A stretch of DNA of 64,000 bases. Origin: Chloroflexota bacterium. Its GTDB lineage: Bacteria; Chloroflexota; UBA11872. Numbering within the stretch: position 1 is the first letter of the stretch; every line of letters starts with the position of its first letter. This document shows, piece after piece, positions 444-51,577 of the stretch. The DNA is taken from the NCBI GenBank assembly GCA_965263175.1, contig OZ253587.1:136105-200104 (forward strand), read 5' to 3'. Position numbers and translations under genes: made by a program. A model generated the notes under the pieces. The model ran no database searches, was not told where the DNA came from, and saw nothing but the letters and a program-made list of their open reading frames with translations.

Positions 444-516
444 GGGCCCATAGCTCAGCTGGAAGAGCGCCTCAATGGCATTGAGGAGGTCGTCGGTTCG
501 AATCCGATTGGGTCCA
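444..516 (+). tRNA. tRNA-Ala (anticodon GGC)
   Basis: Cloverleaf read by eye. The acceptor stem GGGCCCA/TGGGTCC has the G3:U70 Ala identity pair. The anticodon stem CCTCA/TGAGG encloses the loop ATGGCAT, giving anticodon GGC. The T-arm has GGTTCGAATCC. The 3' end is followed by CCC, so CCA is not encoded. Confidence 0.85.
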
Positions 517-615
517 CCCCTTCTTCCAGCCCACGCCCCCTGTAGTCAGAACACGACCAGCTAGGACGCGCCTGGTAATGTCTCAATCTGCCCTGCGATT
601 TGCCAACAAAACTGT

Positions 616-650: not shown

Positions 651-1910
651 ATGACCACCCAACTCATCAAGGCTGGCGCCAACTGGGTCGCTGGCGAACG
701 GTTCTTTGACCGCGAGGCGGAACTCCAGGATCTGAGAGAGCGGGTCCGGGACGGAACGCACACGCTCCTGACCGCACAACGGCGCATGGGCAAGACCAGC
801 CTGGTGCGCGAACTCCTGCGCCAGTTGGAAGGCGAAGGACACTTCGCCAGCGTTTTCGTAGACCTCGAAGCGGCAAACGACCCGGCCGACGCCGTGGCCG
901 AGATTGCGATTCAGGCTAGACCGGTCCAAGGCGCCTGGACCCGCATTCGGTCCGGGTTTGCTAATCAACTGCGCGATGTCCGCGATCACATCGAGGAAAT
1001 AGGACTTCTTGAGCTGAAGGTGAAGCTCCGCGCCGGCATCGACGCCGGGAACTGGCAGCACCGGGGAGATCAGGTCTTCGCGGCGCTGGCGTCAAGCGAG
1101 AAGCCAGTGGTGCTGGCCATCGACGAGCTCCCCATCCTCGTCAACCGTCTGCTGAAGGGTCCTGACTACCGCGTGACCCCCGAGCGGAAGGCCGCCGCGG
1201 ACCAGTTTCTCGCCTGGCTGAGAAAGAACGGACAAGACCATCGCAGTGCAGTGACTCTGATCATCTCAGGCAGCGTCAGCCTCGAACCGGTGCTTCGGCA
1301 AGCAGGTCTCAGCGCCCACGCCAACATCTATTCACCCCTGGAGTTGCATCCCTGGAGCCACGACACGTCCAGCCGCTGTCTGGCCGCCTTGGCCCGTACC
1401 TATCATCTGGACCTTTCGGAGGACGTGCGAACCGAGATTTGCCACCGCCTACGTTGTTGCGTTCCGCACCACGTGCAGCAGTTCTTCGACTACCTGCACC
1501 AGCATCTCCGCAGGAACGGCAGCAACACGGCGACCGTCGAAGATGTCGAACTGGTTTACAGACGTGAGTTGCTCAGCGTTCGAGGGCAGATCGACCTGGA
1601 GCACTACGAGGTGAGGCTCAGGCTGGTTCTCGGAGACGAGGGCTATGGGACCGCGCTCGAATTGCTAACCGAGGCGGCCGTGAACGACGGGCTGCTGACC
1701 CCACAGGCCCTTCGGCTTTACCGCGACGCGCTCGCGTCGTCAGACGCTGATGGCGGACTTCCAATTGAAGACGTGCTCTACGCGCTGGAACATGACGGGT
1801 ATTTGGAACGAAACACTGGCGGATACCGCTTCGTGTCCCGGCTGCTTCAGGACTGGTGGCTCGCCCGTCACGGTCAGTTCTTCACCCCCATCGAGGATCG
1901 CGACATATAG
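651..1910 (+). CDS. AAA+ ATPase, COG1672/Arch_ATPase-like (STAND-type NTPase)
   Basis: Walker A RRMGKTSLVREL, Walker B-like VVLAIDELP, about 419 aa. Architecture is typical of PF01637-like predicted ATPases. Confidence 0.6.
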   Translation: MTTQLIKAGANWVAGERFFDREAELQDLRERVRDGTHTLLTAQRRMGKTSLVRELLRQLEGEGHFASVFVDLEAANDPADAVAEIAIQARPVQGAWTRIRSGFANQLRDVRDHIEEIGLLELKVKLRAGIDAGNWQHRGDQVFAALASSEKPVVLAIDELPILVNRLLKGPDYRVTPERKAAADQFLAWLRKNGQDHRSAVTLIISGSVSLEPVLRQAGLSAHANIYSPLELHPWSHDTSSRCLAALARTYHLDLSEDVRTEICHRLRCCVPHHVQQFFDYLHQHLRRNGSNTATVEDVELVYRRELLSVRGQIDLEHYEVRLRLVLGDEGYGTALELLTEAAVNDGLLTPQALRLYRDALASSDADGGLPIEDVLYALEHDGYLERNTGGYRFVSRLLQDWWLARHGQFFTPIEDRDI

Positions 1911-1924
1911 AAGGTAAGGCTGCA

Positions 1925-4030
1925 ATGGCGGTAGCAGTTAAGAAATACAATCCCGGCTTCCTCAGCGACGACGACATCGTAGCTTCGTTCTGCGTCCGAT
2001 CCGCGGAGTTCGAGTCGCTCATCGAGTCCCTGCGCGAGTGCGACGCTAGCTCCAGCCCTCACTCGCTCGTCATTGGACCCCGCGGCAGCGGCAAGACGCA
2101 CTTGCTGCTTCGCGTGGCGGCCGAAGTGCGTCGGGACCCTGTCCTTGATGGTCTCTTTCCGATCGTATTTGCCGAGGAAAGCTACGAGGTCACGACGTGC
2201 GGTGAATTTTGGTTGGAGTGCCTGGGTCGCCTGTTCGGACAGGCGCCCAGCGAGGAGCGCGACAACCTGCGCCTGACCTACGACGAGCTCCGAACCGTTA
2301 CCGACGATCAAGTCTTGGCTGACCGCTGCATCGGCTCGCTGCTCGACTTTGCGGATCGTCACCAGACTCGACTGCTACTGCTGGTCGAAAACCTGAACAT
2401 GCTTTTGGCCGACATCGACGATCGCGAGGTCGGCTGGCGGCTGCGACAGACCCTGCAGACCGAGCCCCGAATCATCCTGTTTGGTACCGCCACCAGCCGA
2501 TTCGAAGAAATCGACAACCCTGAGCACGCCCTCTACGACCTCTTTCGGGTCATCAGTCTACGTTCACTCGACACCGACGAATGCAAGACTCTCTGGCAAA
2601 CCGTTGCTGGGAAGCCCTCCACCGGCGAAGCGGTTCGCCCACTCGAGATCCTCACCGGTGGCAACCCGCGTCTTCTCACCATCATCGCCCGCTTCGGCGC
2701 GGGCAGGTCGTTCCGCGACCTGATGGAGAACCTGCTCGACCTGGTCGACGAGCACACCGAGTACTTCAAAAGCCACCTCGAATCCCTCCCGCCCCAGGAA
2801 CGCCGTGTCTATCTCGCGCTGGCACGCCTCTGGAAGCCCTCCACCACCAGGGAAGTCGCCGACCTCGCGCGCCTCAACACCAACGCATGCAGTGCCCTTC
2901 TCCGGCGCCTCGTCCAGCGCAGCACGGTCGCCATCGAGGGCGGTACGCCCCGCCGTCAGCTGTATTACCTCACCGAGCGCCTCTACAACATCTACTACTT
3001 GTTACGTCGAGGCAAAGGCACTGACCGACTCGTTCAGGCGTTGATTGACTTTATGATATGCCTGTACTCGCCATCTGAGATAGCGGATGTCATCGAGAGT
3101 ACTATCGAGGACTCCTATCGCTTAAATGTTCTCCCACAGATTGTCGGAGCACAGATGGCCGGTGCACTGCTGAACAAGGCGCACTCCCTGCAAGGGATGG
3201 GTAAGAATGACGATGCTATCGCTCTCTATGACCAAGTGATTCAGCGGTTCGGCCCTGACCATGGCCCTGGCAATGAATTGCAGGTAGGTGCCGCATTGAC
3301 GAGCAAATCATCGCTGCTCATTCAGCTTGGTCGGGGACACGAGGCTATCGTTACTTGCGAAGAAGTCATGGGCCAATACAGAACGGGAAAGGTAGAATTC
3401 TCTGCAGTACTATCGGCGTATGCGCTTTGGGTTAAAGGCATAGCGATAGACGCGGTTGGCGATCCTCCAAAGGCTCTTGATACATTCAATCACGCCCTAG
3501 CGTATATTGACACCCTTGAAGCGCCGGTTCCTGACTTCATTATAGCTGGCATTCTACATTGCAAGGGATTAGTGTTTGTTCGGCTTAATCAGCTTGACAA
3601 AGCGCTTGCTGCATTCGACGAGGTCCTAACGCAATATGGCATGGCGTCGGAACTTCAGCAAACCGGAACAACAGCAATGGTCCTCATAAGTAAGGCTCTC
3701 GTATTGGATCAATTCGATCGCACCATTAGCCTCACCGAATTATCCTTTTTACTGAAGAGTCTGGCTGAGCACGGCAGCGTTCGTCCCGGCAGCACCGAGG
3801 CGCTGCTTCCCTTCGTTGCCGCCGTCGAACCGGCCAATGCCCTCGACCTCCTTCAGGCCTCGCCGGCGGCTCACCTTCTACTGCCCCTGATAACCGCCCT
3901 GCAGCAGGAACTGGGACAGAATCCGCAGGTCGCCAAAGAGGTCGCCGAAGTCGCCAGCGACGTGCGGACCAAACTGGCCGAAGCCAGAGTCAGACATGCG
4001 CATGCCCGGGCCCAACTCCACGCATCTTGA
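1925..4030 (+). CDS. AAA+/STAND-like ATPase with C-terminal TPR-like repeat region
   Basis: Walker A GPRGSGKTHLLL. A GGTAAGG Shine-Dalgarno sequence lies before the ATG at 1925. The C-terminal half is helical and repeat-rich. Positions 3040-3780 are about 50% GC, against about 68% for the flanks. Confidence 0.55.
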   Translation: MAVAVKKYNPGFLSDDDIVASFCVRSAEFESLIESLRECDASSSPHSLVIGPRGSGKTHLLLRVAAEVRRDPVLDGLFPIVFAEESYEVTTCGEFWLECLGRLFGQAPSEERDNLRLTYDELRTVTDDQVLADRCIGSLLDFADRHQTRLLLLVENLNMLLADIDDREVGWRLRQTLQTEPRIILFGTATSRFEEIDNPEHALYDLFRVISLRSLDTDECKTLWQTVAGKPSTGEAVRPLEILTGGNPRLLTIIARFGAGRSFRDLMENLLDLVDEHTEYFKSHLESLPPQERRVYLALARLWKPSTTREVADLARLNTNACSALLRRLVQRSTVAIEGGTPRRQLYYLTERLYNIYYLLRRGKGTDRLVQALIDFMICLYSPSEIADVIESTIEDSYRLNVLPQIVGAQMAGALLNKAHSLQGMGKNDDAIALYDQVIQRFGPDHGPGNELQVGAALTSKSSLLIQLGRGHEAIVTCEEVMGQYRTGKVEFSAVLSAYALWVKGIAIDAVGDPPKALDTFNHALAYIDTLEAPVPDFIIAGILHCKGLVFVRLNQLDKALAAFDEVLTQYGMASELQQTGTTAMVLISKALVLDQFDRTISLTELSFLLKSLAEHGSVRPGSTEALLPFVAAVEPANALDLLQASPAAHLLLPLITALQQELGQNPQVAKEVAEVASDVRTKLAEARVRHAHARAQLHAS

Positions 4031-17438: not shown

Positions 17439-18628
17439 GGAGACCTTTGCTTAACTGCGGCATGCACGGCCGAGGGGGTGAGATCGGGGCCAAACGGCGG
17501 CCAGCGGCGGCCACAACGGCCGGGCGCCGGGGGATCGTCGGGCGGTCCCGTGGGGTTCCCCCGCCGCGACGGCGCACGGATCCCACGTTAGCCACCGGCC
17601 AGCGCCTGCAAGCGGCTCGCGCGCCGCAGGTTGTAGGCCATACATTTGAACCACAGTTCCACCGCGTTCCGCGCCAGCCCCAGGTAGCGCACGGTCCGGT
17701 ACCCGTAGCTCCGCTTCAACGTCCCAAAGACGTGCTCCACCGGTGCCCGCACCTTCCCGATCAGCGCATTGCGCCGCTGCTGCCAGGAGGGCAGCCCGCG
17801 CTGGTGCTTGTGCGAGCGGTGCATGATCCGGTCGTTAATCCCCTGCGCCCGCAACCGCGCCCGCCGGGCCTTGGACTCGTAGGCCTTGTCCGCGTAGACC
17901 GCCCGCTCGTCGCCGCTGATCAACGTGTCCGCCACCTCGCTTTCGTTCACGTGCGCCGGCGTCAGCACGGCTCGCCGGATCAGCCCCGACGCCGCATCGA
18001 CCCCCAGGTGCGCCTTGTAGCCGAAGGGGGCGCGCCCACCTTTGCGCGTCCAACTCGCCTCCGGGTCGGTGGCACTGCCCGCCCCCGGCCCCTCGTCCAT
18101 CGACGGCCGCCGCGCCTGCGCCGCCACCAGCGTCGCGTCCAGGAGCGTGCCCGCCTTGACCAGCCAGCCGGCGGCGTCCACTTGCCGGGTCACCTCGGCG
18201 AACAAGCACTCGCCCAAGCCCCGGTCCGCCAGCGCGGTCCGAAAGCGGCTGATCGTCGAGTGGTCGGGCACCGGGTCCTGCAGGCCCAGCCCGACGAAGC
18301 GCCGGAACGACAGCCGGTCCCAGAGCGCCGCCTCGATCTCGGGGTCGGAGGCCTGGTACCACTGCTGCAACAGCAACACCTTCACCATCAGCAGCGGCGG
18401 ATAGCTGGGCCGCCCCTCGGGGGCGGCGTAGATGTCGCTGACCACGACCGCGAGCCGCTCCCAGTCCACGACCTCGTGGAGCTGGTCCAGCCGCGCGTTA
18501 CGGCCCACCGGCGGCGGCAACCACGCGTCCACGAACGAGGCGTCCCCTACCTGTCGATGCATGGGCCATCTCCACCAAAGTCCCGTCGTCCCCATGGTGG
18601 CCGCATAGCCCAGTTATGCAAAGGTCTC
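17439..18628. mobile_element. IS5-family insertion sequence (about 1.19 kb), copy 1
   Basis: Imperfect TIRs GGAGACCTTTGCTTAACTGCGGCATGC / GGAGACCTTTGCATAACTGGGCTATGC (the right TIR read as reverse complement). Flanked by the 6-bp direct repeat CCTGTG. Encodes one DDE transposase. Confidence 0.7.
17588..18595 (-). CDS. IS5 family DDE transposase
   Basis: N-terminus YPPLLMVKVLLLQQWYQASDPEIEAALWDRLSFRRFVGL (InsH-N/DUF772-like). C-terminus VEHVFGTLKRSYGYRTVRYLGLARN. 335 aa. Confidence 0.8.
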   Translation of the reverse strand: MGTTGLWWRWPMHRQVGDASFVDAWLPPPVGRNARLDQLHEVVDWERLAVVVSDIYAAPEGRPSYPPLLMVKVLLLQQWYQASDPEIEAALWDRLSFRRFVGLGLQDPVPDHSTISRFRTALADRGLGECLFAEVTRQVDAAGWLVKAGTLLDATLVAAQARRPSMDEGPGAGSATDPEASWTRKGGRAPFGYKAHLGVDAASGLIRRAVLTPAHVNESEVADTLISGDERAVYADKAYESKARRARLRAQGINDRIMHRSHKHQRGLPSWQQRRNALIGKVRAPVEHVFGTLKRSYGYRTVRYLGLARNAVELWFKCMAYNLRRASRLQALAGG

Positions 18629-20559: not shown

Positions 20560-21357
20560 ATGTCGTACGACAGCTTTGTTGCGTCGAGAGAGGCTGACGT
20601 GGCGGACAACACCATCGCCCTCGAGTTGCACGGTTCCGACTTTGTCCTAGACGACTTGGGCACAGCGGTCGAGCACTTTCGGGGGCTCCTAAGCGACTTG
20701 GCGACCGAAGTGGCCGAGGGTGTCGTGGTTACCTGACGGCTTGGCCGTCTCGGGACCGGAAGCATCGTCGCCGAAGTTCGCTGCGAAGCCGAAGATCCCA
20801 CGGCGGTAGACCGGGTCATCGCCGCCTACGACTGCGTCGGCGCGGCCCTGGCCAATGGCGAGCCCATTCCTTATTCAGAGGCTATCGTGGCGCACACAGA
20901 CCGCCTGACCGGCCTGATTAACGGTCGAGTCACGTCGGTCCACTTCAGAACCAGGGGCCAGGTGCACGAGGTTCAACAGCCCGCGCCGAGCGCGCTCGCG
21001 GAACAAGACCCGCACCTGGACTCGTTCGGCGCGGTCGAAGGCATGGTCGACACGCTGGCTTGGCGCCGCGGGATTCGATTCGTTGTCTATACGGACGACG
21101 AAGCGCGTGGCGTTCCCTGTTACATGAGCCTCGAGGACGAGGCAAAGATGGCGGGGCTCTGGCGCAAGCGTGTGCGCGTCGAGGGACTGCTCCGGCGCGA
21201 TTCGAACACGGGCTTGCCCTTGTCCATTCGTGACGTGACCAACATTGAGGTCCTCGAACCGCCAGCCGCCGAGCCCGAGGACCTCTGGGGCATCCTGCCA
21301 ACCGTTGGCGACCGCAAGCCGGAGGAGATCATCCGAGCGGGGTGGGATGGCGTCTGA
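20560..21357 (+). pseudogene. upstream partner of the PIN toxin, 265 codons in one frame interrupted by a single in-frame TGA at 20734-20736. The track ORF 20887..21357 is the part after the stop.
   Basis: ATG at 20560, then the TGA, then the same frame continues into the conserved module DSFGAVEG...RKRVRVEGLLRRDS...EEIIRAGWDGV. The stop overlaps the PIN start (ATGGCGTCTGA). Confidence 0.4.
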
Positions 21358-21826
21358 CCGTCCACGGCTCTATTGGGACTCGTGTTGCTTCATCTCATAC
21401 CTCAACGGGGACGCCACACGTTCAGAACTGCGCACGCTCATGGCTGATGCCCAGGCCGGCGGCGTGCTGATCGTCACCTCGGCTATTTCGGTCGCGGAAG
21501 TGGCGTACGTTGCGCCGGAGTCGCCGGGCCGCCCGCTGGATCCAGATGTTGAGCGCCGGATCGAAGACATGTGGCGCTGGCGGCAGGCTATTCGGCTGGT
21601 CGAAGTCCAAGCCGGCCTCGCCGCACGTGCGCGAACCCTGCTTCGCCACGCGCTAACAAACGGCTGGGAACGGAACCCTCGCGATGCGATTAATCTCGCC
21701 TCGGCCCGGCAAGTGTCCGCATCGACGGTTCACACCTACGACGAGCGATGGGACCGTTACGCGCAGGTCATCGGCAGAAACATCGAGCGCCCAGATCTGC
21801 TATATGTGTCGCAGGCCGCGCCATAA
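21347..21826 (+). CDS. PIN domain protein (VapC-like toxin)
   Basis: MASDRPRLYWDSCCFISYLNGD... has the PIN acidic motif (D of LYWDS). Translationally coupled to the upstream gene by an 11-nt overlap. Confidence 0.6.
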   Translation: MASDRPRLYWDSCCFISYLNGDATRSELRTLMADAQAGGVLIVTSAISVAEVAYVAPESPGRPLDPDVERRIEDMWRWRQAIRLVEVQAGLAARARTLLRHALTNGWERNPRDAINLASARQVSASTVHTYDERWDRYAQVIGRNIERPDLLYVSQAAP

Positions 21827-22061: not shown

Positions 22062-22226
22062 CTAATCCGCGCGGGCCGCATCGCGCCGCGCCTGGGCCTC
22101 GCGCTCGAAGTCCCATTCGGCTTTCGGCGGCCCCTGCATAATGGCGCGCGCGATATTCTCCGGCGTGTCGGGGATTGGTTCGGGCAGCGGCTTGGGCGGG
22201 CGGCCGCGCGTGCGCTTCTTCGTCAT
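22062..22226 (-). CDS. small basic protein (54 aa) with an AT-hook-like RGRPPK motif, translationally coupled (ATGA overlap) to the methyltransferase
   Basis: MTKKRTRGRPPKPLPEPIPDTPENIARAIMQGPPKAEWDFEREAQARRDAARAD. The ATG overlaps the methyltransferase TGA. Not present in the ORF track because it is shorter than 60 aa. Confidence 0.35.
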   Translation of the reverse strand: MTKKRTRGRPPKPLPEPIPDTPENIARAIMQGPPKAEWDFEREAQARRDAARAD

Positions 22227-23782
22227 ACGAGCCTCATTTGCATCGGCTTGCCGGTGTACGGGTCGGCCATCAACGGCAAGACGGGCGGGAGCTGGTTGAA
22301 GTAGTCGGCCATGGACCAGCGTTGCATCCGCGGGTAGGCCATGCCGCCGACCTGAATCGTGCCCATGCCGGCCGTCTCGGTTCGCGCGGCGTGCGTGTCT
22401 ACGCGATCCACGGTGAGATAGCAGCCGAGGGCCGCGCGGTCACGGGCGATGACGTGGTTGAAGTCGCGCAAGTTGCCGAGGCTGAACGCGCCGCCCTTGA
22501 CTTGAGCGAGCGCGAGCCGCGTCACGTCGGCCTCGGGTTGCTCCCAGACCGTGCCCCGGCCGTCCACGCCACCATCCGCCACCTGCTTCGTATTGGGCAC
22601 AAAGCCATTAAGCCGGGTGACCGCGCAGGTCTCGAACGCGAACGGACGTTCGGCGGCCAGCTTGGATGCGCCCGCCAGGTCGTAGGGGATGCCGTAGGCG
22701 GGAATGCTTGGGTCTTGGAGCCGCCGGTCGCGGATCACGTCAATGGCAAAGGGCGAGATATCGACGCCAAGCCACGGGCGGCCCAACTTGTGCGCAGCCT
22801 CGACGGTCGTGCCGCAGCCGCAGAACGGGTCAAGCACAACGCCATCCCTTGGGCTGGACGCGGCGATCACACGCTCAAGCAATGCACGCGGTTTCTGGGT
22901 CGCGTAGCCGAGGCGCTCTTTTCCAAGAGCCACCGGGATGTCACTCCATAGATTGCTCACCGCCACGCCGTCCCATTCGTCACGGTACTGCTTGCGAAAC
23001 GGCTTGTTATTGGCGTTGTAGTGGATGCGGTTTTCGGCATGCAGGCGCTTGAGGTTGGCTCGACTGACACGCCAGCCGTGCGGCGGGTTGTGCCCGTTCC
23101 ATTCGTATTTCGGTGAGGCATGGAGACCTGCATCGCTGTACAGGTCAGCCACGGCTCGATAGACCCCTTGCTCATCGCGATGCTTGAACGGTCGCATGCC
23201 AGGCGTCTCTTTACGGACGCGCGGGATGGTCACGACGTGCTGCGGCTTGGCGTAAAACAAGACGAGGTCGGTCACCGTCCCGAACGTCCTGGTCGGACCA
23301 CGTGTGCCCTTGACGCCTGACCGCTCCCAAACGATCTGATTCCTGAAGTTCGCAGCACCGAAAATGCCATCAAGCAGGATTTTCAAGTAATGGCCTGCGG
23401 TCGGGTCACAGTGCAAGTAGAGGCCGCCCGTCGTCTTCAGCAGCCGATGGCAGTGTTCGAGCCGTTCGGCCATGTAGGTCAGGTAGCTGAGCATCCCCGA
23501 CGGCCCCAGGATGCTGTACAGGCCGACGATGGCGGCGTGCGCGGGCCGTGCGATGGCTGAACGGTAGGCGTCCATGCGTTCGGCCGCGTCCGCGTCCCAG
23601 TGCCACGTATCGGTGAAGGCGCGGTATTGCGCGCCGCCGACCGTCTTGCCAAACAGCACGTTGTAGTTCGATTGCGAGTTGAACGGCGGGTCGAGGTACA
23701 CGAGGTCCACGGTCTGATCGTCCCACTCGCGCATCCATTCCAGGCAATCGCCGTAGTACAGCGCGTTCAGCGTGGGGTGCAT
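22223..23782 (-). CDS. beta-class N6-adenine/N4-cytosine DNA methyltransferase (N6_N4_Mtase) with a C-terminal Mrr-like (PD-(D/E)xK) nuclease-type domain
   Basis: Motif IV VYLDPPFNS near the N-terminus, then motif I VLDPFCGCGTT. The C-terminus has ADGGVDGRG...(23 aa)...LAQVKGG, resembling the Mrr_cat DGGxDG...QxK signature. Confidence 0.6.
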   Translation of the reverse strand: MHPTLNALYYGDCLEWMREWDDQTVDLVYLDPPFNSQSNYNVLFGKTVGGAQYRAFTDTWHWDADAAERMDAYRSAIARPAHAAIVGLYSILGPSGMLSYLTYMAERLEHCHRLLKTTGGLYLHCDPTAGHYLKILLDGIFGAANFRNQIVWERSGVKGTRGPTRTFGTVTDLVLFYAKPQHVVTIPRVRKETPGMRPFKHRDEQGVYRAVADLYSDAGLHASPKYEWNGHNPPHGWRVSRANLKRLHAENRIHYNANNKPFRKQYRDEWDGVAVSNLWSDIPVALGKERLGYATQKPRALLERVIAASSPRDGVVLDPFCGCGTTVEAAHKLGRPWLGVDISPFAIDVIRDRRLQDPSIPAYGIPYDLAGASKLAAERPFAFETCAVTRLNGFVPNTKQVADGGVDGRGTVWEQPEADVTRLALAQVKGGAFSLGNLRDFNHVIARDRAALGCYLTVDRVDTHAARTETAGMGTIQVGGMAYPRMQRWSMADYFNQLPPVLPLMADPYTGKPMQMRLV

Positions 23783-24914: not shown

Positions 24915-25028
24915 TACCTAGCGGCAGATTCCATGCCCAAGTCTGGTAGAGTTCTATTCTGTCCACGCAAATTGCCAGCCAACCATTGGCATCGCAGCCC
25001 GGCGGCAGCGACGGAGGAACGAGGAATA

Positions 25029-26954
25029 GTGTCAACATTTAAAGCGAATGCGTTCCTACTCAAGAATATTCTTGACAATGTTGCCAACGGTAGCATCCAA
25101 CTCCCCGACTTCCAGCGCGGCTGGGTGTGGGACGACGACCGAATAAAGGACCTGCTGGTCAGCATTTCGCGCGGCTTCCCTATCGGTGCCGTGATGACTC
25201 TCGATGCCGGTGGGGACTTGCGGTTTCGAAGCCGCTTAGTCGAGGGCGTGGATTCGAATGGCGACGATCAAGCATCCGAATACCTGCTGGATGGCCAACA
25301 GCGTCTTACGTCGCTGTACCAGGCGCTGCGGTATGAAGGGCCGGTAGAAACCCGCCACCGACCTGGTGGAAGATGGGTCATCAAGCGATGGTATTACATC
25401 GATATGCAAAAGATTCTGAATCCCCTGATCGATCTGGAGGACACCGTCGTTAGCGTTCCTGAAGACCGAGTTGTCAGGTCAAATTTCGGCCGTGATATCA
25501 CTTTGGATCTGTCCTCGTCTGACTTCGAATTCAAGCATCATATGCTGCCCACCGAGAAAGTCATGAATATCATGGATTGGATGCTTGGATACCTTGGTTA
25601 TTGGAAGGATCGCGGCGAGCATCCGGAGGGTGACCCGGTTGCTTTCTTCACCCAGTTCAAGGCTGCCGTGCTGGACAACTTCACCGACTACCAGTTGCCG
25701 GTCATCAGCCTTGGAAAAGGGACGTCCAAGGAGGCTGTTTGCACGGTCTTCGAAAAGGTCAACACCGGCGGCGTAACTTTGAATGTGTTCGAGTTGGTGA
25801 CCGCCGCCTTCGCTGCGGAAGTGGGCGAGGACGATTTCTCGCTGCGGGACGACTGGGAAGCGCGAAGCAGGCGGCTACACTCGGAATTCGGCGTGCTTCA
25901 AGGCGTCGGCGCTGATCAATTCCTGCAAACGGTGACACTGCTGGCGACCCAAGCACGGCGCAGGCGAGCTACTTCTGAGACTCCGTCGAGTCAACTTCCC
26001 GGTATCGGCTGTAGGCGAGCAGACATCCTCAACCTGACGTTCAGCGACTACCAGACATGGGCCGACCGAGTGGAAGAGGGATTCAGGGTCGCCGCAAAGT
26101 ACCTGCGCGGCCAATTCGTTTTCACCAGGTACAACGTGCCTTACAACACCCAACTGGTTCCCCTGGCAGCGTTGTACGTTGAGTTGGGCAAGGAGTTGGC
26201 GCCCGCCAACGCGCAGGATAAGCTGAACCGCTGGTTCTGGTGCGGCATCTTCAGCGAAGCCTATGGCGGCGGCGGTGAGACTCAGTTTGCTCGTGACCTC
26301 GAACAGGTTGCCAACTACATCCGAGGCGGCGCCGAACCGGAACTTGTTAGCCAGGCGAGCTTTGTTCCCGAGCGGCTGTTGTCGTTGAGAACACGCAACA
26401 GCTCTGCCTACAAGGGTCTGTACGCGCTGCAAATGAAAAGCAACGCGGCTGACTGGCGCAGCGATGGACCCTTGACCTTCGCCACCATCCATGACGAGAA
26501 CATCGATATCCACCATATTTTCCCGGTCGCCTGGTGCAGGCATGCCGATCCGGAGGTGCCAAGACACCTGTACGACTCGGTAATCAACAAGACGCCGATT
26601 GACGCGCAGACGAACCGAATCATCGGTGGTAAGGCGCCGTCCATCTACTTACCCCGCTTGCGCCGTCGTGATATCGGCGAAGAAAAATTGAATCGAATTC
26701 TTGAATCGCATTGGATCGATCCCAAGCTGCTTGAGAGTGATCTTTTTGGCGACTGCTTCGTCGAGCGCGGTCAAGCAATGCTCGACTTGATCAACCGCAC
26801 GATGGGTAAGCCAGCCGTCGATGGGCGTCAGGTCTTTCGCGATGCGCTGGACTCCGCCGGTCTGGCTGAGCAGGACAGCGATGACGAGGTTGAGTACGAT
26901 CCCATCGGCGACAGCGCCTTTGGCGACGAGACACTGGGCGGCGACAATTCATAA
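25029..26954 (+). CDS. GmrSD-like type IV restriction endonuclease candidate (N-terminal DUF262, C-terminal DUF1524/HNH-like)
   Basis: N-terminus LPDFQRGWVWDDDRIKDLLVSI...DGQQRLTSLY (DUF262 DGQQR motif). C-terminus DIHHIFPVAW (DUF1524 His-Me finger). GTG at 25029 with a GGAGGAA RBS. The upstream ATG at 24933 is an alternative start. Confidence 0.65.
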   Translation: MSTFKANAFLLKNILDNVANGSIQLPDFQRGWVWDDDRIKDLLVSISRGFPIGAVMTLDAGGDLRFRSRLVEGVDSNGDDQASEYLLDGQQRLTSLYQALRYEGPVETRHRPGGRWVIKRWYYIDMQKILNPLIDLEDTVVSVPEDRVVRSNFGRDITLDLSSSDFEFKHHMLPTEKVMNIMDWMLGYLGYWKDRGEHPEGDPVAFFTQFKAAVLDNFTDYQLPVISLGKGTSKEAVCTVFEKVNTGGVTLNVFELVTAAFAAEVGEDDFSLRDDWEARSRRLHSEFGVLQGVGADQFLQTVTLLATQARRRRATSETPSSQLPGIGCRRADILNLTFSDYQTWADRVEEGFRVAAKYLRGQFVFTRYNVPYNTQLVPLAALYVELGKELAPANAQDKLNRWFWCGIFSEAYGGGGETQFARDLEQVANYIRGGAEPELVSQASFVPERLLSLRTRNSSAYKGLYALQMKSNAADWRSDGPLTFATIHDENIDIHHIFPVAWCRHADPEVPRHLYDSVINKTPIDAQTNRIIGGKAPSIYLPRLRRRDIGEEKLNRILESHWIDPKLLESDLFGDCFVERGQAMLDLINRTMGKPAVDGRQVFRDALDSAGLAEQDSDDEVEYDPIGDSAFGDETLGGDNS

Positions 26955-27762: not shown

Positions 27763-28137
27763 GTGGCGGAAACGCCTCTGAACGACACCTCGCACTGGAA
27801 CTCGTTTGGGGCTGTTGAGGGCGCGGTGGAGAAGCTGGCCCAAGGCCATGCGGCGCCGTTCGCCGTGTACCCGGACGAAGCTCCGCGCGGCGTTCCCTGT
27901 TACGTCCGCGGCGAGGACGCGGCCAAGCTGTCAAGGCTCTGGCGCAAGCGTGTCCGAGTCGTGGGACTGCTCCGACGTGATTCCAGCACGGCTCTGCCCT
28001 TGTCCATCCGCGACGTCACCAACACTCAGCTTCTTGAACCGCCAGCTGCCGAGCCCCAGGACCTCTGGGGCATCCTGCCGCCGAGTCCTGGCCCGACGCC
28101 CGAAGAGATCATCCGAGCGGGGTGGGATGGCGTCTGA
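27763..28137 (+). CDS. paralogue of the PIN-partner protein (conserved C-terminal module only)
   Basis: NSFGAVEGAVEKLAQG...RKRVRVVGLLRRDSSTALPLSIRDVTN...EEIIRAGWDGV is about 70% identical to the 21000-21357 module. Confidence 0.5.
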   Translation: MAETPLNDTSHWNSFGAVEGAVEKLAQGHAAPFAVYPDEAPRGVPCYVRGEDAAKLSRLWRKRVRVVGLLRRDSSTALPLSIRDVTNTQLLEPPAAEPQDLWGILPPSPGPTPEEIIRAGWDGV

Positions 28138-28219
28138 CCGTCCACGGCTCTACTGGGACTCGTGCTGCTTCATCTGGCACCGTACTGGAACAGAGACAGA
28201 TTGGCGGCGTGTGTGAAAT
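28127..28219 (+). pseudogene. truncated PIN toxin gene (second copy), only about 30 codons
   Basis: MASDRPRLYWDSCCFIWHRTGTETDWRRV*. The sequence diverges after codon 17, and a MITE sits about 35 bp downstream. Confidence 0.5.
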
Positions 28220-41011: not shown

Positions 41012-41099
41012 GGACGTACGCCAGAACGGAATCGGCGGAAGCACCCGCGCGCGCGCTGCGGAGAGCAGCTTTGGGGTGCAGGTGACCCGTGCCTCGTCA

Positions 41100-42291
41100 G
41101 AGACCTTTGCAAAACCCTGGCGTGAGGTGGATCGTGGAGACCATCGTTCCCGCCGCCGAGAGTCGTGGCCATGCACCGTTCCACCCATTCGCCGGAACTG
41201 ATCGACGCCTGGCTGCCGCCGCGGGTGGGCCGCAACGCCCGGCTGGAGCGGCTGACGCAGCTCATCGACTGGGCGCCGCTGGAGGCGCTGGTGGCGGACC
41301 TGCACGCCGCGCCGGTCGGGCGGCCGAGTTATCCGCCGCTGCTGATGGTCAAGGTGCTGCTGCTCCAGCAGTGGTATCAGGCCTCGGACCCGGCGATGGA
41401 AGAGGCGTTGTGGGAGCGGCTGTCGTTCCGGCGCTTCGTGGGGTTGGGGCTGCAGGACGACGCGCCCGATCACTCGACGATCAGCCGCTTCCGCACGCGG
41501 CTGACGGCGGCGGGCGTGGCCGAGCCGCTGTTCGCGGCGGTGGAGCAGCAACTGGCCGCGCGCGGGCTGCTGGTCATGCAGGGCACGCTGGTGGACGCGA
41601 CGTTGGTGGACGCGCAGGTGCGCCGCCCGCAAGGGGGCGCCACCGGCGCGGGCAGCCCCCGGGACCCGGACGCGGCCTGGGCCCGGCGGGGCCGGCAGGC
41701 GCGCTTTGGCTACAAGCTGCACCTGGGGGTGGACGCCGAGTCGGAACTGGTCCGGCGCGCGGTGCTGACCCCGGCGAACGTGAACGAGACCCAGGTGGCG
41801 GACGAGCTGATCGCGGGGGACGAAGGGGCGGTGTACGGGGATGCGGCCTATGGCACGCACGCGCGCAGCGCCCGGCTGCGGGCGCGGGGGATCGCGGATC
41901 GGCTGATGCGACGGCCCACCAAACATCAGCCCCGGCTGGGCCCGGCGGCGCGCCGCCGCCACGCCCGGATCGAACAGGTGCGACGGCCGGTGGAGCACGT
42001 GTTTGGGACGTTGAAGCGCTCGTACGGCTACCAGCGGGTGCGCTACCGGGGCCTGGCCCGGAACACGACCGAGATGTGGTTCAAGCTGCTGGCCTACAAC
42101 CTGCGCCGCGCGGACCGCTTGCTGGCCGGGGCCCCGACCTCGCCCTAGGCGCGCTGCGCCCTCAACCAGGCGCGCAGGCCTGCGGGCAGGCCCCGGCGAG
42201 CGGCGACCCAGGCTGCCCCACCCCGCGCCACCCTCTCGCGGGTCGGGCGTCGCCCCTCGGCGCTGCGCAGGGCGCATTATTCAAAGGTCTC
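41100..42291. mobile_element. IS5-family insertion sequence, copy 2 (divergent from copy 1)
   Basis: TIRs GAGACCTTTGCAAAACCC... / ...TTCAAAGGTCTC. Flanked by the 6-bp direct repeat TCGTCA. About 1.19 kb. Confidence 0.65.
41165..42148 (+). CDS. IS5 family DDE transposase
   Basis: YPPLLMVKVLLLQQWYQASDPAMEEALWERLSFRRFVGL and VEHVFGTLKRSYGYQRVRYRGLARN. 327 aa. About 75% identical to the copy-1 transposase. Confidence 0.8.
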   Translation: MAMHRSTHSPELIDAWLPPRVGRNARLERLTQLIDWAPLEALVADLHAAPVGRPSYPPLLMVKVLLLQQWYQASDPAMEEALWERLSFRRFVGLGLQDDAPDHSTISRFRTRLTAAGVAEPLFAAVEQQLAARGLLVMQGTLVDATLVDAQVRRPQGGATGAGSPRDPDAAWARRGRQARFGYKLHLGVDAESELVRRAVLTPANVNETQVADELIAGDEGAVYGDAAYGTHARSARLRARGIADRLMRRPTKHQPRLGPAARRRHARIEQVRRPVEHVFGTLKRSYGYQRVRYRGLARNTTEMWFKLLAYNLRRADRLLAGAPTSP

Positions 42292-42294
42292 TCG

Positions 42295-44127
42295 TCAGGC
42301 AGATGACGGTGCCACTTCCTCGTAGCACTCTCGGTCCAAGCAGTCAATTAAGGGCGTGTGCGCGTTGGCGCAGCAGACGATCGAAAGCGAACGGCTGGAG
42401 CGCGTGATTGCCACGTAGAGCTGCGCGCGTTGCCGGTCGATCGGGAATCTCTCAGCCACGGGGTCAAGCAGGTACACCGACGCGAAGTCCAGCCCTTTCG
42501 CGGAGTGCACCGTGGCCAACGCTACAGAGGCACCGTCCGGCGGAGCGTTGCGGTCCACCACTCGCACGGGTACACCTGCCCGCTCCAGGGCTACCCTCGC
42601 CTCGTCGCGCTGCGGGTTCGAACCCGTCAGCACTGCAATCTGGCTGACAGGCCGTCCCGCCTCAATCTCCGCGAGTACCGACTCGACCACGAACGCCAGG
42701 GCTCGAGGCCCCTCAGCGCACCTAGCCAGCCGCGGCAGCGGGCCTTCGCGCTTAGGCGTTGACAACTCTTCAACGTCGCGGCGTACCTCGTCGACGTCTG
42801 CGTAGATTGAGGCGGCCAGGGCGTGAAGCTGACGGGTCGAGCGGTAGGGCTCGCGCAAGACGTGGGTCCGACCTCTACGCGACCCGAATTCGGGGGCAGC
42901 CCACCGGTAGCGTCCGGCGTAGAGCGCCTGTGCCGGGTCAGCCAGCACCAGAAGCCGCGTCTCAGCCCCAGCCACAAGCGCCTTGGCCAGCCGGGCCATC
43001 ACCGGCGAGCAGTCCTGACCCTCGTCGACAATCACGTCACGGTAGCGAGGCGGATTCGGATCCTTCGCAATCGCGGCGCGCGCCCGTTCGATTAGGTCAT
43101 TCCAACTGTCCTGCGCGTCCCTCCGGTGCCGGATCCGCTGATAGAGCGCCCAGACCGCCCGGCGTTGAGGCTTGAACAGACGCACCAACCCCTCACTCTC
43201 CGGCCTATTGAGGTCAAGGTAGGGCTGTACCTCGTCGAACTGGTTGGGGCCAAGGACATCGCTAATCTCTGTGAAGAGATCGTCCTCCGCGAGCCTCTCG
43301 AGCGCGCGGCGGTCGGCATCCGGCAGCTGCCGCACTTCCTGGGCTAGCACTGTGCGGAGCCAGCGGTCATACACAGCCGGATTTGCCGAGTAGCTGTCTA
43401 CACGCCGTCGAAGGTACCGCCCAGCCCAGCCGTGGAAGGTGTTTACCTCGATCTGCCGCGACCTCTCGGGTGGGGCGAGCGTTCTGATTGCTTCTCGCAC
43501 GGTGCGCATAAGCACTCGGTTGAAGCAGAGATACAGCACGCGTCCGTCTTCAAAGCCTGGCAGCAGGCTCTGGCGCAGCGCTCGGTGGATTGCGATCGAA
43601 GTCTTGCCAGTGCCTGCGCCAGCCGTGACGAAGGACAGCTTCGTTTGGTTGGTTTTGCTCGCGTCAAAGGTGACTAGGAAACGCTGTGCCTCATCGAGGG
43701 CCGCGAAGTAATGCTGGTACCCGCGTGCCGCCAGCGCACCCAATTTGTCTGGCTCCGTTATCGGGGTAGGGTCCTGCGAGGCAACGCTTGGAACCGGCTC
43801 GTGTCGCTGAAGAACCTTGCTGCGCCTAGGAATCTCCTGAAGGTGCCTATCCTTCCACGCGTAGGCCTCGTCGTGTTTGCCGACCCAAAGAAGCACGACT
43901 CGATTCTCAGTCTTGGCAAAGACCAGCCGATACTCCTTCGTGACCCGGGCTGAACGCACCTCCAGGCCGCAGTCGAACCGATGCAGCAGCTCGTCGTTTA
44001 GTCCGGCGCGCTTGTCACCCGCTACAAGGCGACGCGCGACCATGAGCGTTTGGTTTTCGAAGCGGCCGCTTAGTCTGTTGAGCGCATCAGAGAAGTCGTG
44101 TCCGCGCCAAAGTTCAAAGTCCGCCAT
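42295..44127 (-). CDS. UvrD/Rep-like SF1 helicase with N-terminal RelE/ParE-like domain
   Basis: N-terminus RVTKEYRLVFAKTENRVVLLWVGKHDEAY (RelE/ParE fold signature). Walker A TAGAGTGKTSIA, Walker B VIVDEGQDCS, motif VI VHSAKGLDFASVYLL. A GGGAGG RBS is present. Confidence 0.6.
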   Translation of the reverse strand: MADFELWRGHDFSDALNRLSGRFENQTLMVARRLVAGDKRAGLNDELLHRFDCGLEVRSARVTKEYRLVFAKTENRVVLLWVGKHDEAYAWKDRHLQEIPRRSKVLQRHEPVPSVASQDPTPITEPDKLGALAARGYQHYFAALDEAQRFLVTFDASKTNQTKLSFVTAGAGTGKTSIAIHRALRQSLLPGFEDGRVLYLCFNRVLMRTVREAIRTLAPPERSRQIEVNTFHGWAGRYLRRRVDSYSANPAVYDRWLRTVLAQEVRQLPDADRRALERLAEDDLFTEISDVLGPNQFDEVQPYLDLNRPESEGLVRLFKPQRRAVWALYQRIRHRRDAQDSWNDLIERARAAIAKDPNPPRYRDVIVDEGQDCSPVMARLAKALVAGAETRLLVLADPAQALYAGRYRWAAPEFGSRRGRTHVLREPYRSTRQLHALAASIYADVDEVRRDVEELSTPKREGPLPRLARCAEGPRALAFVVESVLAEIEAGRPVSQIAVLTGSNPQRDEARVALERAGVPVRVVDRNAPPDGASVALATVHSAKGLDFASVYLLDPVAERFPIDRQRAQLYVAITRSSRSLSIVCCANAHTPLIDCLDRECYEEVAPSSA

Positions 44128-44308
44128 CCAGCCTCCCGCCCGCCGTAGGCCGTACTTGTCGCGTCACCGAGTTTCGCGCAGTTTATTGAGCCGCCCGCTG
44201 TGCGTTAGTGGACATCACGGTCGCGCTCCCCGCGAATGTTGGTCCGACGGCCAGGGTCGGGGCGTAGGATCAGTCAGCTTCCAGGGTTCGCAGGAAGGTG
44301 TTCTGAGC

Positions 44309-45283
44309 ATGCATGACCCGGTGAAGGTTGGATTTGTTGGGGCGGGGAACCTGGCGAGCCGGGTGCATTACCCGTCGCTGGACGAGATCGAGGCCACGGA
44401 CTTGCGGGCGATTTCAGAACTGGACGAGGACCGCCTGACCGCGACCGCCGACCAGTACGACGTGCCCGGCCGCTACACCAACTACCGCGACATGCTCGAG
44501 CGCGAGGACCTGGACGCCGTCTACGTGGTCATGCCGCCGCACCTGCTGCACGACATCGTGGTGGACTGCCTGCAGGCCGGGAAGCACGTATTCGTGGAGA
44601 AGCCGCCCGGGGTCTCCACCTACGAGACGGAGGCATTTGCCTGGTACGCCGAGCGGCACGACTGCCTGACCATGACCGGGTTCAACCGGCGTTTCATCCC
44701 CCTGCTGCGCCACTGCAAGGCCGTGGTTGAGGCCGCCGGGCCCATCCACATGGTCTCCGTGCGCTTCCACAAGAACGACCCCGACATTGACGGCTTCGGC
44801 TTTTACCGGGGCTCCGTCAGCCACCTGACCTCCGACATCATCCACGCGGTCGACTCGCTGCGCTGGCTGGCGGGGGGCGAGGTGGTGGAGGTAACGGCCC
44901 ACACCCGCGCGCTGGGCCGCCCCTACATCAACGTGCACGCCGCGCTGATCGAGTTTTCCAGCGGCTGCTCAGGCGTGCTGCTGGCCAGCCGCCGGGCCGG
45001 CGCCCGCCGCCACACCTTCGAGTTCCACGGCGGCGACGTCTCCGCGTACTGTGAAGACGGTATCGAGGGCATGATCTACCGCGACAACTCGGACACCCCC
45101 GAGTTCGTGCGGGGCGCGGACCTTGTTGACGACTCCGACGCCCTGCATCAGCGCTCCGGCTTCCTGGCGGAGAGCCGACACTTCATGGAGAGCATCCAGG
45201 CCGGCACTCAGCCCCTCACCAACTTCGCCGAAGCCGCCAAGACCATGCGCCTCGTCGACCAGATCGCGGCGGATCGGCGCTAG
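44309..45283 (+). CDS. Gfo/Idh/MocA family oxidoreductase
   Basis: VKVGFVGAGNLASRVHYPSL (Rossmann) and HVFVEKPPGVSTYE (EKP motif). Confidence 0.7.
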   Translation: MHDPVKVGFVGAGNLASRVHYPSLDEIEATDLRAISELDEDRLTATADQYDVPGRYTNYRDMLEREDLDAVYVVMPPHLLHDIVVDCLQAGKHVFVEKPPGVSTYETEAFAWYAERHDCLTMTGFNRRFIPLLRHCKAVVEAAGPIHMVSVRFHKNDPDIDGFGFYRGSVSHLTSDIIHAVDSLRWLAGGEVVEVTAHTRALGRPYINVHAALIEFSSGCSGVLLASRRAGARRHTFEFHGGDVSAYCEDGIEGMIYRDNSDTPEFVRGADLVDDSDALHQRSGFLAESRHFMESIQAGTQPLTNFAEAAKTMRLVDQIAADRR

Positions 45284-46005
45284 CTGTCGGGGCGCCTCGC
45301 AGTCAATGATCCGCCTTTCGTTAAACCACTGGGGGACAACAGCCCTACCAGGCGCGCCAATTCCGCTCTCTGGCACCGGTTCATCCGTGAATTGGACAGG
45401 AATTGGCTCCAGCCGATAAACCGCCTGCCCAGCAATTCGCCACAGAACAAAGACGTCCCAAGACTCCTATCCACCCGCTGCTCGAATCGCGTCCCGAAGA
45501 TGCGTTCCAGCCGCTCAACAACCGTCCTGCCATTGCCCAGCAGCAACCTGATGTTGGGGCTATCGTGCAGTACTCTCTCAAAGAACGGCAGGCCGTCCTC
45601 GATCAACCTGTCCTGAATCCGCCTGTCCAACTTCCCCCATAAGGGATCGGTAGGCCACTGCACGATATCCAGAGAACAGGCCAGGTGAGGCTGACGGGCA
45701 ACGTAGCGGCCGCCGTACGACGCGCCGCACGCGTTGAGAATCGGCTCCAAGGCCGTGAAATACCTGTACCTGTGGTTCTCGAAGTACCGACGCTTGTCTT
45801 CCCACACCTGTTCGGCGCCGCCCGCTTTCATTGACGGATAGTTGCTGCGGTGCCAGACGCCATGAGGATTGATGCCAACGGTTGCGACGCCGGCGACGCT
45901 CACGTGGCCCTCGACGACCTGGGGCAGCGCTCCCGGTGGCACGCAGCAACCGTCAGGTGGCGCTGCGTCTCGGATGCAGGCGGGATAGTCCAACCCTCGG
46001 GTCAT
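45280..46005 (-). CDS. hypothetical protein
   Basis: ORF with genome-typical GC3. Overlaps the oxidoreductase stop by 4 nt. No recognised motif. Confidence 0.3.
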   Translation of the reverse strand: MTRGLDYPACIRDAAPPDGCCVPPGALPQVVEGHVSVAGVATVGINPHGVWHRSNYPSMKAGGAEQVWEDKRRYFENHRYRYFTALEPILNACGASYGGRYVARQPHLACSLDIVQWPTDPLWGKLDRRIQDRLIEDGLPFFERVLHDSPNIRLLLGNGRTVVERLERIFGTRFEQRVDRSLGTSLFCGELLGRRFIGWSQFLSNSRMNRCQRAELARLVGLLSPSGLTKGGSLTARRPDS

Positions 46006-50746: not shown

Positions 50747-51577
50747 TCAGTCCGGCAGCAGCATGCTCAGCAGCGTGTCCAGATCCTCCGGATCTCGGTA
50801 TTCGATCTGGATGCGACCACGCTTCCGGGTACCCACAAAGCGAACGCGGGTTCCCAGCCGCCACTGCAAGCGCTCGGCGACATGCGCCAACTCGACGTCG
50901 GGCGGGGACGGTGGCGCCAGGATGCGGCGGGCCGCCCGCTCGGCCTGCCGCAGATTGAGGCGACCGGTCAGCATGCGCAGAAACAGCCGCTGCCGCATTA
51001 GCGGGTCGGATATGCCCACCAGGGTGCGGCCGTGACTCTCGGTGATACGGCCCTCGGCCAGCGCCTGCTGCATCTCCGCGTCCAGCCGCTGCAGCCGCAG
51101 CGTGTTAGCCACCGCCGACCGGCTCAAGCCCACCACGGCCGCCACCTGCGCTTGGGTCAGTCCAAAGTCATCGATCAGTGCCTGGTAGGCGTGTGCTCGC
51201 TCCATCGGCCCCAGGTCGCTGCGCTGCACGTTCTCGACCAACGCCAGTTCAACCCGACGCCGAGCGTCGGCTGCGATGATCGTGACCGGAATCTCGGCCA
51301 GCCCCGCCGTGCGCGCCGCTCGCCAGCGGCGCTCGCCAGCCACCAGCAGAAAGTATCCCGGCCGCTCGATTGACGGCGTAACCAACAGCGCCTGGAGCAC
51401 GCCGTGACGTCGAATCGACGCCCCCAGGGCCGCCTCTTCTTGCGCGTCAAAACGCCGCCGCGGCTGTTCTGGATTCGGTTCAATACGGTCAAGCGGAACC
51501 GAGCGATGGTCACTGCGTATGTCGGCTGGGAAGTCAGTCACGCCGTGGTCGGATGCCATCTGATGAATCGCCACCAC
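50747..51577 (-). CDS. parB: chromosome partitioning protein ParB/Spo0J
   Basis: PEQPRRRFD (box I), VAGERRWRAA (ParB box II GERRxRA), HTH, and a C-terminal dimerisation region. Confidence 0.8.
   Translation of the reverse strand: MVAIHQMASDHGVTDFPADIRSDHRSVPLDRIEPNPEQPRRRFDAQEEAALGASIRRHGVLQALLVTPSIERPGYFLLVAGERRWRAARTAGLAEIPVTIIAADARRRVELALVENVQRSDLGPMERAHAYQALIDDFGLTQAQVAAVVGLSRSAVANTLRLQRLDAEMQQALAEGRITESHGRTLVGISDPLMRQRLFLRMLTGRLNLRQAERAARRILAPPSPPDVELAHVAERLQWRLGTRVRFVGTRKRGRIQIEYRDPEDLDTLLSMLLPD

Follow-up and report, generated by a model that had tools for sequence, protein, structure and literature searches.

A compact, partner-less Chloroflexota variant of the ArmD architecture, joining a RelE/YoeB-fold domain to a UvrD-like helicase, with a putative function in immunity

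We examined a 64,000-nucleotide stretch of a Chloroflexota genome (GTDB lineage UBA11872; assembly GCA_965263175.1, contig OZ253587.1, positions 136,105 to 200,104), hereafter the window. Our focus is a gene of 610 codons on its minus strand, whose product joins a RelE/ParE-superfamily domain, most like YoeB, to a complete UvrD/Rep-type superfamily 1A (SF1A) helicase (Table 1). The original prediction had placed this open reading frame (ORF) at exactly these bounds. The window is GC-rich (66.1%) and has many long spurious ORFs, and the ORF by itself proves little. That it is a real gene, and not simply a reading frame left open by chance in GC-rich DNA, is supported by approximately 80 full-length homologues, which are 31-65% identical to the window protein in a 60-sequence alignment. 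The gene ends in a TGA stop codon at 42295-42297 (TCA on the plus strand). Its GC content is 63.5%, and the value of about 58% given originally fits only the first ~330 bp (58.8%); GC and GC3 (73%) of the gene are near host values. A scan of positions 41000-44500 for promoters and terminators gave nothing exceeding shuffled expectation. The gene is flanked upstream by a divergent oxidoreductase gene and downstream by an insertion sequence (IS) or a convergent UxuA-like gene. Proteins of this type are currently labeled only “AAA family ATPase” or “UvrD-helicase domain-containing protein”, their N-terminal RelE-like domain having been overlooked at Pfam thresholds.

An AlphaFold2 (AF2) model of residues 1-98 (predicted local distance difference test, pLDDT, 89.8) has strands at residues 5-8, 46-50, 56-61, 66-72, and 76-84 and helices at residues 12-17 and 21-35. 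When this model was compared with PDB structures using Foldseek, the top 34 matches were all RelE/ParE-superfamily toxins (RelE, YafQ, YoeB, HigB, and Helicobacter pylori homologues), led by archaeal RelE, YafQ, and YoeB with a probability of 1.0. For the top ten, the template modeling (TM) scores were 0.66-0.72 normalized by the query (TMq) and 0.73-0.78 normalized by the target (TMt). ParE structures appear lower in the list, at rank 35 and below (E ~6e-3 or worse). A profile built from 40 N-terminal domains retrieved YoeB from the PDB (E 3.7e-4), followed by HigB and RelK. Searched singly against Pfam, the same 40 aligned domains matched HigB-like (17), ParE_like (16), ParE_toxin (9), and YoeB (7). 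The window domain alone stays under the Pfam threshold (ParE_like, 15 bits vs. a cut-off of 24.4), and residues 1-141, searched singly against PDB sequences, returned only a chance match at E 5.5, such that a family profile was required. The fold call thus depends on two sources, the family profile and the structure model. Both, together with Foldseek, bear out the RelE/ParE fold that was first proposed from a short peptide, which alone was insufficient. The Foldseek comparison also rules out the other candidate considered for this region, a canonical N-terminal extension of UvrD.

The first ~95 residues are conserved across the family and in remoter proteins of ~700 amino acids, following the pattern PGLN.E.L ... 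S.R(V/I)...YR(L/I)I ... LLWV..HDEAY.W..R. Mean pairwise identity among the 60 homologues is 49% in the RelE core, 44-47% in the helicase lobes, and 26% in the tether between them. Residues of note in the domain are E46, S59, R61, R67, H85, D86, Y89, and W91. The catalytic residues of YoeB are Glu46, Arg65, His83, and Tyr84. In HMMER alignments to YoeB, E46 falls on Glu46, S59 on Ser57, R61 on Arg59, and R67 on Arg65, and H85 falls on the terminal His of Streptococcus pneumoniae YoeB, the counterpart of His83. R67 and H85 are present in all 60 homologues, S59 and R61 in 59 each, and E46 in 55. As aligned, the domain keeps the counterparts of three of the four catalytic residues of YoeB (E46, R67, and H85). 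We conclude that, within the RelE/ParE superfamily, its closest resemblance is to the RNase members and that it is under selection. The domain family is widespread, a profile search of 1.84 billion proteins having recovered 1,451 representative clusters at E <= 1e-10, and JGI already names some distant relatives RelE.

The remainder of the protein is a complete UvrD/Rep-like helicase, as had been proposed from its GxGKT, DEGQD, and VHSAKGLDF motifs and as is borne out here by Pfam, fold, and invariant motifs. Pfam UvrD-helicase matches residues 162-410 (E 4.5e-19), UvrD_C and UvrD_C_2 match residues 533-586 (E 3.4e-14 for UvrD_C), and AAA_19 is also found. Invariant in the 60 sequences are Q148, K175, D368/E369/Q371/D372, D397/Q400, R429, K544/G545 (of VHSAKGLDF), and R576. 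The full-length AlphaFold model has a pLDDT of 86.6 and a predicted TM score (pTM) of 0.77, and residues 107-121, within the tether, are at pLDDT <50. Its best Foldseek matches are Deinococcus radiodurans and Escherichia coli UvrD, PcrA, and Rep (E 1e-16 to 1e-20), in agreement with a fold of two RecA-like lobes bearing 1B/2B insertions. Judging from motif spacing, subdomain 2B appears to be reduced, with only a short stretch between motifs IV and V. The protein scores 41-61 bits against the NCBIfam equivalog models for UvrD, PcrA, Rep, HelD, and helicase IV, far under their cut-offs of 419-1168, and is therefore none of these housekeeping orthologues. PADLOC and NCBIfam scans gave no family-specific model and only generic helicase-core matches (NERD+UvrD, DRT helicase, GajB, and UvrD/PcrA/HelD).

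Table 1. Coordinates of the fusion gene, its parts, the adjoining insertion sequence, and other features of the window.
Feature	Position	Strand	Basis or remark
RelE-like/UvrD-like helicase fusion gene	42295..44127	-	610 aa; ORF list, Pfam/PADLOC/NCBIfam scans, ~80 full-length homologues
Shine-Dalgarno sequence GGGAGG	44132..44137	-	4 nt 5' of fusion-gene ATG; read from sequence
RelE/YoeB-fold domain, residues 1-104	43816..44127	-	beta-alpha-alpha-beta4 plus C-terminal helices; AF2, Foldseek, profile, conservation
Interdomain tether, residues 105-125	43753..43815	-	poorly conserved, predicted disordered
SF1A UvrD/GajB-like helicase core, residues 126-610	42298..43752	-	compact; Q motif (Q148) to motif VI (R576)
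Walker A GAGTGKT, residues 170-176 (K175)	43600..43620	-	motif alignment
Walker B / motif II DEGQD, residues 368-372	43012..43026	-	motif alignment
IS5-family insertion sequence	41101..42290	+	1190 bp; terminal inverted repeats AGACCTTTG; bounds from IS-free sister strains
IS transposase, 327 aa	41165..42148	+	DUF772 and DDE_Tnp_1; Pfam E 1.3e-27 and 2.9e-26
Left target-site duplication CTCGTCAG	41093..41100	.	junctions vs. empty site
Right target-site duplication CTCGTCAG	42291..42298	.	includes fusion-gene stop codon
Second IS5-family element	17588..18595	-	
241-aa ORF	45280..46005	-	called gene; no Pfam/PADLOC/NCBIfam match
parB-like gene	50747..51577	-	
dnaA	52039..53424	-	
N6/N4 DNA methyltransferase gene	22223..23782	-	
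GmrSD-type gene	24933..26954	+	type IV restriction
Direct repeats, 300 nt	21079..21378 and 27859..28158		81% identical
tRNA-Ala	444..518		
STAND-like NTPase ORFs	651..1910 and 1856..4030		AAA_16/ATPase_2; second with TPR

The joining of a RelE-like domain to a GajB-like UvrD helicase has already been described as ArmD, and the window gene is not the first of its kind. ArmD belongs to ARMADA type II, a four-gene anti-phage system reported in a September 2025 preprint (PMC12458937; bioRxiv 2025.09.15.676423) with E. coli strains NCTC 12900 / ATCC 8739. Defence is lost upon removal of any one of the four genes or with the ArmD substitution K266A, and is weakened by D454N; ARMADA is most abundant in Pseudomonadota and Actinomycetota (PMC12458937). 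The suggestion that the window gene might represent an undescribed effector-helicase architecture is therefore superseded, and a RelE-like domain has been reported in the SF1 helicase CnuH as well (PMC11090510). Literature searches for a RelE or ParE-like domain with a UvrD-like helicase found these two papers alone to be relevant; the searches were noisy, “rele” also occurring in “release” and “relevant”.

We compared the window protein with a 704-aa ArmD orthologue encoded on an E. coli plasmid, where the gene order (SNF2-related, DNA methyltransferase, 2113-aa DEAD/DEAH helicase, 704-aa helicase) is that of ArmA-ArmB-ArmC-ArmD. This orthologue has K266 and D454, the residues mutated in the published ArmD. 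The two proteins align over an N-domain block (43% identity over 56 aa, E 4e-8) that includes WV.KHDEAY.W..RH, and over a helicase-core block (25% identity, E 5e-24). Common to both are the N-domain subfamily motif S.R...YR......LLWV..HDEAY.W..R, the Walker A and B motifs, and all SF1A motifs. In ArmD, which is ~700 aa long, ~150 residues separate the RelE-like domain from the helicase (K266), whereas the 610-aa window protein has a short tether (K175); ArmD residues ~100-245 have no counterpart in the window protein, which is ~95 aa shorter. ArmD is also the fourth gene of a strict operon with ArmA (SNF2), ArmB (a PglX-like methyltransferase), and ArmC (YprA-like), whereas the window gene is solitary, and the taxa differ, the window clade having been found in Chloroflexota only. 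We identified no SNF2, PglX-like, or YprA/MZB gene among the largest ORFs of the window (which encode ProRS, a class A PBP, a STAND-like ATPase, GmrSD, a methyltransferase, and DnaA), in the neighborhood of the gene, or in 21 related loci. The ArmA-ArmB-ArmC-ArmD operon is, by contrast, present at loci L016 and L015. Among the metagenomic ~700-aa relatives, some sit after a PglX-like methylase and a YprA-like DEAD/MZB helicase, and one is solitary. Some ~700-aa relatives are in defence-type contexts, one of them after a type III restriction-modification (R-M) system and a HigB/helix-turn-helix (HTH) pair. In this arrangement (L012/L013, 6336-9073), a ~690-aa ArmD-like RelE-UvrD gene lies 20 bp 3' of the HigB-like toxin/HTH_3 pair and the type III R-M system, and an HTH antitoxin-like protein may possibly regulate some ArmD-like members.

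Other known systems resemble the window protein in part. The toxins YoeB, RelE, and YafQ are ribosome-dependent mRNA endonucleases. They share the fold of the N-terminal domain, in which YoeB E46, S57, R59, R65, and the terminal catalytic His have counterparts. These toxins are free-standing (84-95 aa) with an adjacent antitoxin gene, whereas the window domain is tethered to a 485-aa helicase, has no antitoxin gene, and extends past the catalytic His by an additional C-terminal helix (residues 85-104). In CnuH of type II/III-A CoCoNuT systems, a predicted RNA-targeting defence protein, an SF1 helicase is preceded by an “RNase toxin-like” domain of the RelE/colicin-D fold (PMC11090510), an order that the window protein shares. 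CnuH has a UPF1-like helicase of the SF1B class, carries further domains, and is encoded in McrBC-type operons, and its RelE-like domain was detected by structural similarity only (PMC11090510), whereas the window protein is SF1A, UvrD-like, and solitary. Cami1 (CARF-RelE; PDB 8phb and 8phj) is found at ranks 40 and 44 among the fold matches of the N-terminal domain. It sets a precedent, as a RelE-fold RNase that is fused to a large sensor domain yet still acts in the ribosomal A site and is controlled in cis, not by an antitoxin. The sensor of Cami1 is a CARF domain that binds cA4 in type III CRISPR signaling and its RelE domain is C-terminal, whereas in the window protein the RelE-like domain is N-terminal and fused to a helicase. 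With GajB the window protein shares the compact UvrD-like SF1A core, and PADLOC GajB models match it (best E 4.5e-22) over the generic helicase core only. GajB lacks a RelE-like domain and partners an adjacent OLD-family ATPase-TOPRIM nuclease, GajA, for which the window locus has no similar gene. A single-gene helicase-nuclease of the Gabija or Nhi-like kind was ruled out, as a GajA gene and a DNase domain are both missing and the extra domain has a RelE fold.

The setting of the gene is conserved in part of its Chloroflexota range. In nine species, down to ~49% protein identity, a divergent GFO/IDH/MocA oxidoreductase gene is followed by the fusion gene, a convergent UxuA-like gene, and a GCS2 gene; in further species the neighbors are metabolic genes too. 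The fusion gene lies ~8 kb from dnaA, a conserved site near dnaA/parB, and the window, which carries both of these genes, spans the chromosomal origin region. Clustering of the ORFs flanking 21 loci yielded no conserved small neighbor that could be an antitoxin or partner, lineage-specific synteny being the sole signal. The clade was recovered in ~20 of 185,579 species representatives, a count that is a lower bound from a pattern-limited scan. What is new here is a Chloroflexota version of the ArmD architecture that is compact, lacks partner genes, and looks vertically inherited, with a putative function.

Gene content next to the fusion gene varies in one close relative. In a sister strain with a 99% identical protein (L004, 1-7184), the upstream segment has been swapped for genes encoding an Eco57I-like methyltransferase, HATPase_c_3, HATPase_c, and several unknown proteins, with the GFO/IDH gene cut short. 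This site is a hotspot of gene turnover. The window also has, upstream of the fusion gene, a 241-aa ORF that is kept in sister strains and is replaced by a 78-aa gene in a relative of 64% identity.

At its 3' end the fusion gene adjoins an IS5-family element, which ends at 42290, leaving four bases before the stop codon, exactly as originally reported. Comparison with the empty site indicates a target duplication of 8 bp, or of 6 bp (TCGTCA) when each end of the element is set one base outward. IS5 itself typically makes a 4-bp target duplication, and the one found here is longer. The fusion ORF is intact despite the insertion because the right copy of the duplication holds the stop codon. Five near-identical strains lack the IS and encode a 99% identical fusion protein, with the convergent UxuA-like gene 85 bp past the helicase gene. 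The empty site was identified by BLAST alignment in one of them (L002), and gene maps of the other four (L001, L003, L004, and L005) show the same 85-bp spacing. We infer that the insertion is recent, strain-specific, and functionally neutral. It had been called “IS copy 2”, a label that does not hold: the sole other related stretch in the window, at 17604-18529 on the minus strand, is only 75% identical at the nucleotide level and belongs to a different IS5-family element.

We give a probability of roughly one half to the reading that the fusion protein is a compact, stand-alone relative of ArmD acting as a single-polypeptide surveillance or immunity effector, in which the helicase gates a tethered YoeB-type RNase in cis. 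The helicase module would load on abnormal or foreign nucleic acid (single-stranded DNA, DNA ends, or RNA-DNA hybrid) and would use ATP either to position the RelE-like domain or to unmask it; the domain would then cleave RNA. By analogy with YoeB and RelE, the likeliest target would be ribosome-bound mRNA. Because there is no antitoxin gene, control of the RNase would have to be intramolecular, via the helicase module. Cami1, which works on the ribosome, indicates that toxin-sensor fusions can function. More tentatively, the protein may be a self-contained single-gene immune or RNA-quality-control enzyme with a UvrD-like motor in place of an antitoxin, a minimal, partner-independent ArmD module that became fixed in the core chromosome. 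Aberrant nucleic acid sensed by the helicase would then lead to unmasking of the tethered YoeB-type RNase and to the cutting of ribosome-bound or nascent RNA. If so, ArmD-type proteins can work without ArmA, ArmB, and ArmC. The RelE-UvrD module also exists outside ARMADA operons, in a phylum whose defence repertoire is largely uncharted. With its short tether, no middle domain, and no partners, the solitary 610-aa version is a simpler subject than ArmD for two questions: whether the RelE-fold domain is an active RNase, and how, with no antitoxin, a helicase can control a toxin domain in cis.

Several observations weigh against an immunity effector with a gated RNase. The retention of one site among metabolic genes in nine species makes the window clade look vertically inherited, unlike a typical mobile defence gene. 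The original prediction had counted conserved housekeeping contexts among orthologues as evidence against its reading of the gene; such contexts were found in part, in the nine Chloroflexota species, and weaken the idea of a mobile defence island for this clade. The clade was found only in Chloroflexota metagenome-assembled genomes, including Dehalococcoidia and Thermomicrobiales. In core-only BLAST searches with the window helicase, ArmD-type cores scored 93-129 bits, a module-less Bacillus UvrD-like helicase 145, and a NERD-fused helicase 109. Because the core is no closer to ArmD than to the module-less Bacillus helicase, whole-protein orthology with ArmD is not established; at the sequence level the specific tie to ArmD lies in the N-domain subfamily, and we do not class the whole protein as ArmD. 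Which residue corresponds to YoeB Tyr84 is uncertain: Asp occupies position 86, and a conserved Tyr comes three residues later (Y89). For ArmD itself, the published mutants are in Walker A and B only, and the ARMADA mechanism is reported to be direct, non-abortive, and without growth arrest (PMC12458937), which is awkward for a translation-arresting toxin.

Part of this evidence would suit a domesticated housekeeping factor, that is, a chromosomal nucleic-acid quality-control enzyme of a Chloroflexota lineage instead of an immune gene. For example, the UvrD-like motor could engage DNA or RNA polymerase at stalled or colliding transcription-translation-replication complexes while the RelE-like domain cleaves mRNA on the ribosome that follows behind. 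Relatives of UvrD, PcrA, and HelD bind RNA polymerase, and structures of HelD with RNA polymerase are among the fold matches of the helicase. The shared site among metabolic genes in nine species representatives, the metabolic neighbors elsewhere, the host-like GC (63.5%) and GC3 (73%), and the lack of any partner, antitoxin, integrase, or repeat boundary at the gene point the same way. We nevertheless consider a housekeeping role rather unlikely: at face value the clade is patchy even inside Chloroflexota (on the lower-bound count given above), there is defence-type gene turnover beside the gene in the sister strain, the core resembles the compact UvrD-like helicases of defence islands, and the sole characterized protein with the RelE-UvrD architecture is a defence component, an anti-phage contribution being known only for E. 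coli ARMADA (PMC12458937). That ARMADA reportedly acts without growth arrest or abortive infection, and that catalysis by the RelE-like domain of ArmD is putative (PMC12458937), would instead fit a non-catalytic RelE-fold domain, an RNA-, ribosome-, or protein-binding adaptor (e.g., ParE-like) that recruits or regulates a helicase doing all the work. The missing antitoxin, a partner that an RNase under no other restraint should have, and the Asp in place of the YoeB Tyr beside the catalytic His are in line with this, as is the nearest single-sequence Pfam model, ParE_like. ParE toxins are not RNases. However, the invariant or near-invariant positions of the domain are those aligned to the catalytic or RNA-contacting residues E46, R59, R65, and H83 of YoeB, and the best profile and fold matches are RNase members (YoeB, RelE, YafQ, and HigB) with ParE ranking lower, making a purely adaptor role improbable.

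A RelE-family domain, an IS four bases from the stop codon, and variable upstream gene content in one strain could also be expected of a selfish, fused toxin-antitoxin-like addiction element, or of a decaying remnant for which the IS marks a degenerating locus. We regard this as highly improbable, given that the ORF is intact with its stop codon regenerated by the IS duplication, that the gene is 99% identical in five IS-free strains, that both domains are under strong purifying selection in the 60 homologues, and that the long-kept synteny is unlike a selfish mobile module.

Other defence-related genes were seen in related loci and elsewhere in the window. Among plasmids, the best match of the helicase core is a 470-aa module-less UvrD-like helicase on a Bacillus wiedmannii plasmid (L066, 4905-6317), where it adjoins an ABC-three-component system and another UvrD-like gene in a defence island. 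Within the window, the genes for the N6/N4 DNA methyltransferase and the GmrSD-type protein are located within or close to patches of low GC (0.53-0.57 at 25-30 kb) and are flanked by the direct repeats. Together they may form a small defence island bordered by these repeats. Near the start of the window, the tRNA-Ala gene is followed by the two STAND-like NTPase ORFs, in a region of lower GC that may represent an integrated island or else a defence locus of the Avs-like kind.

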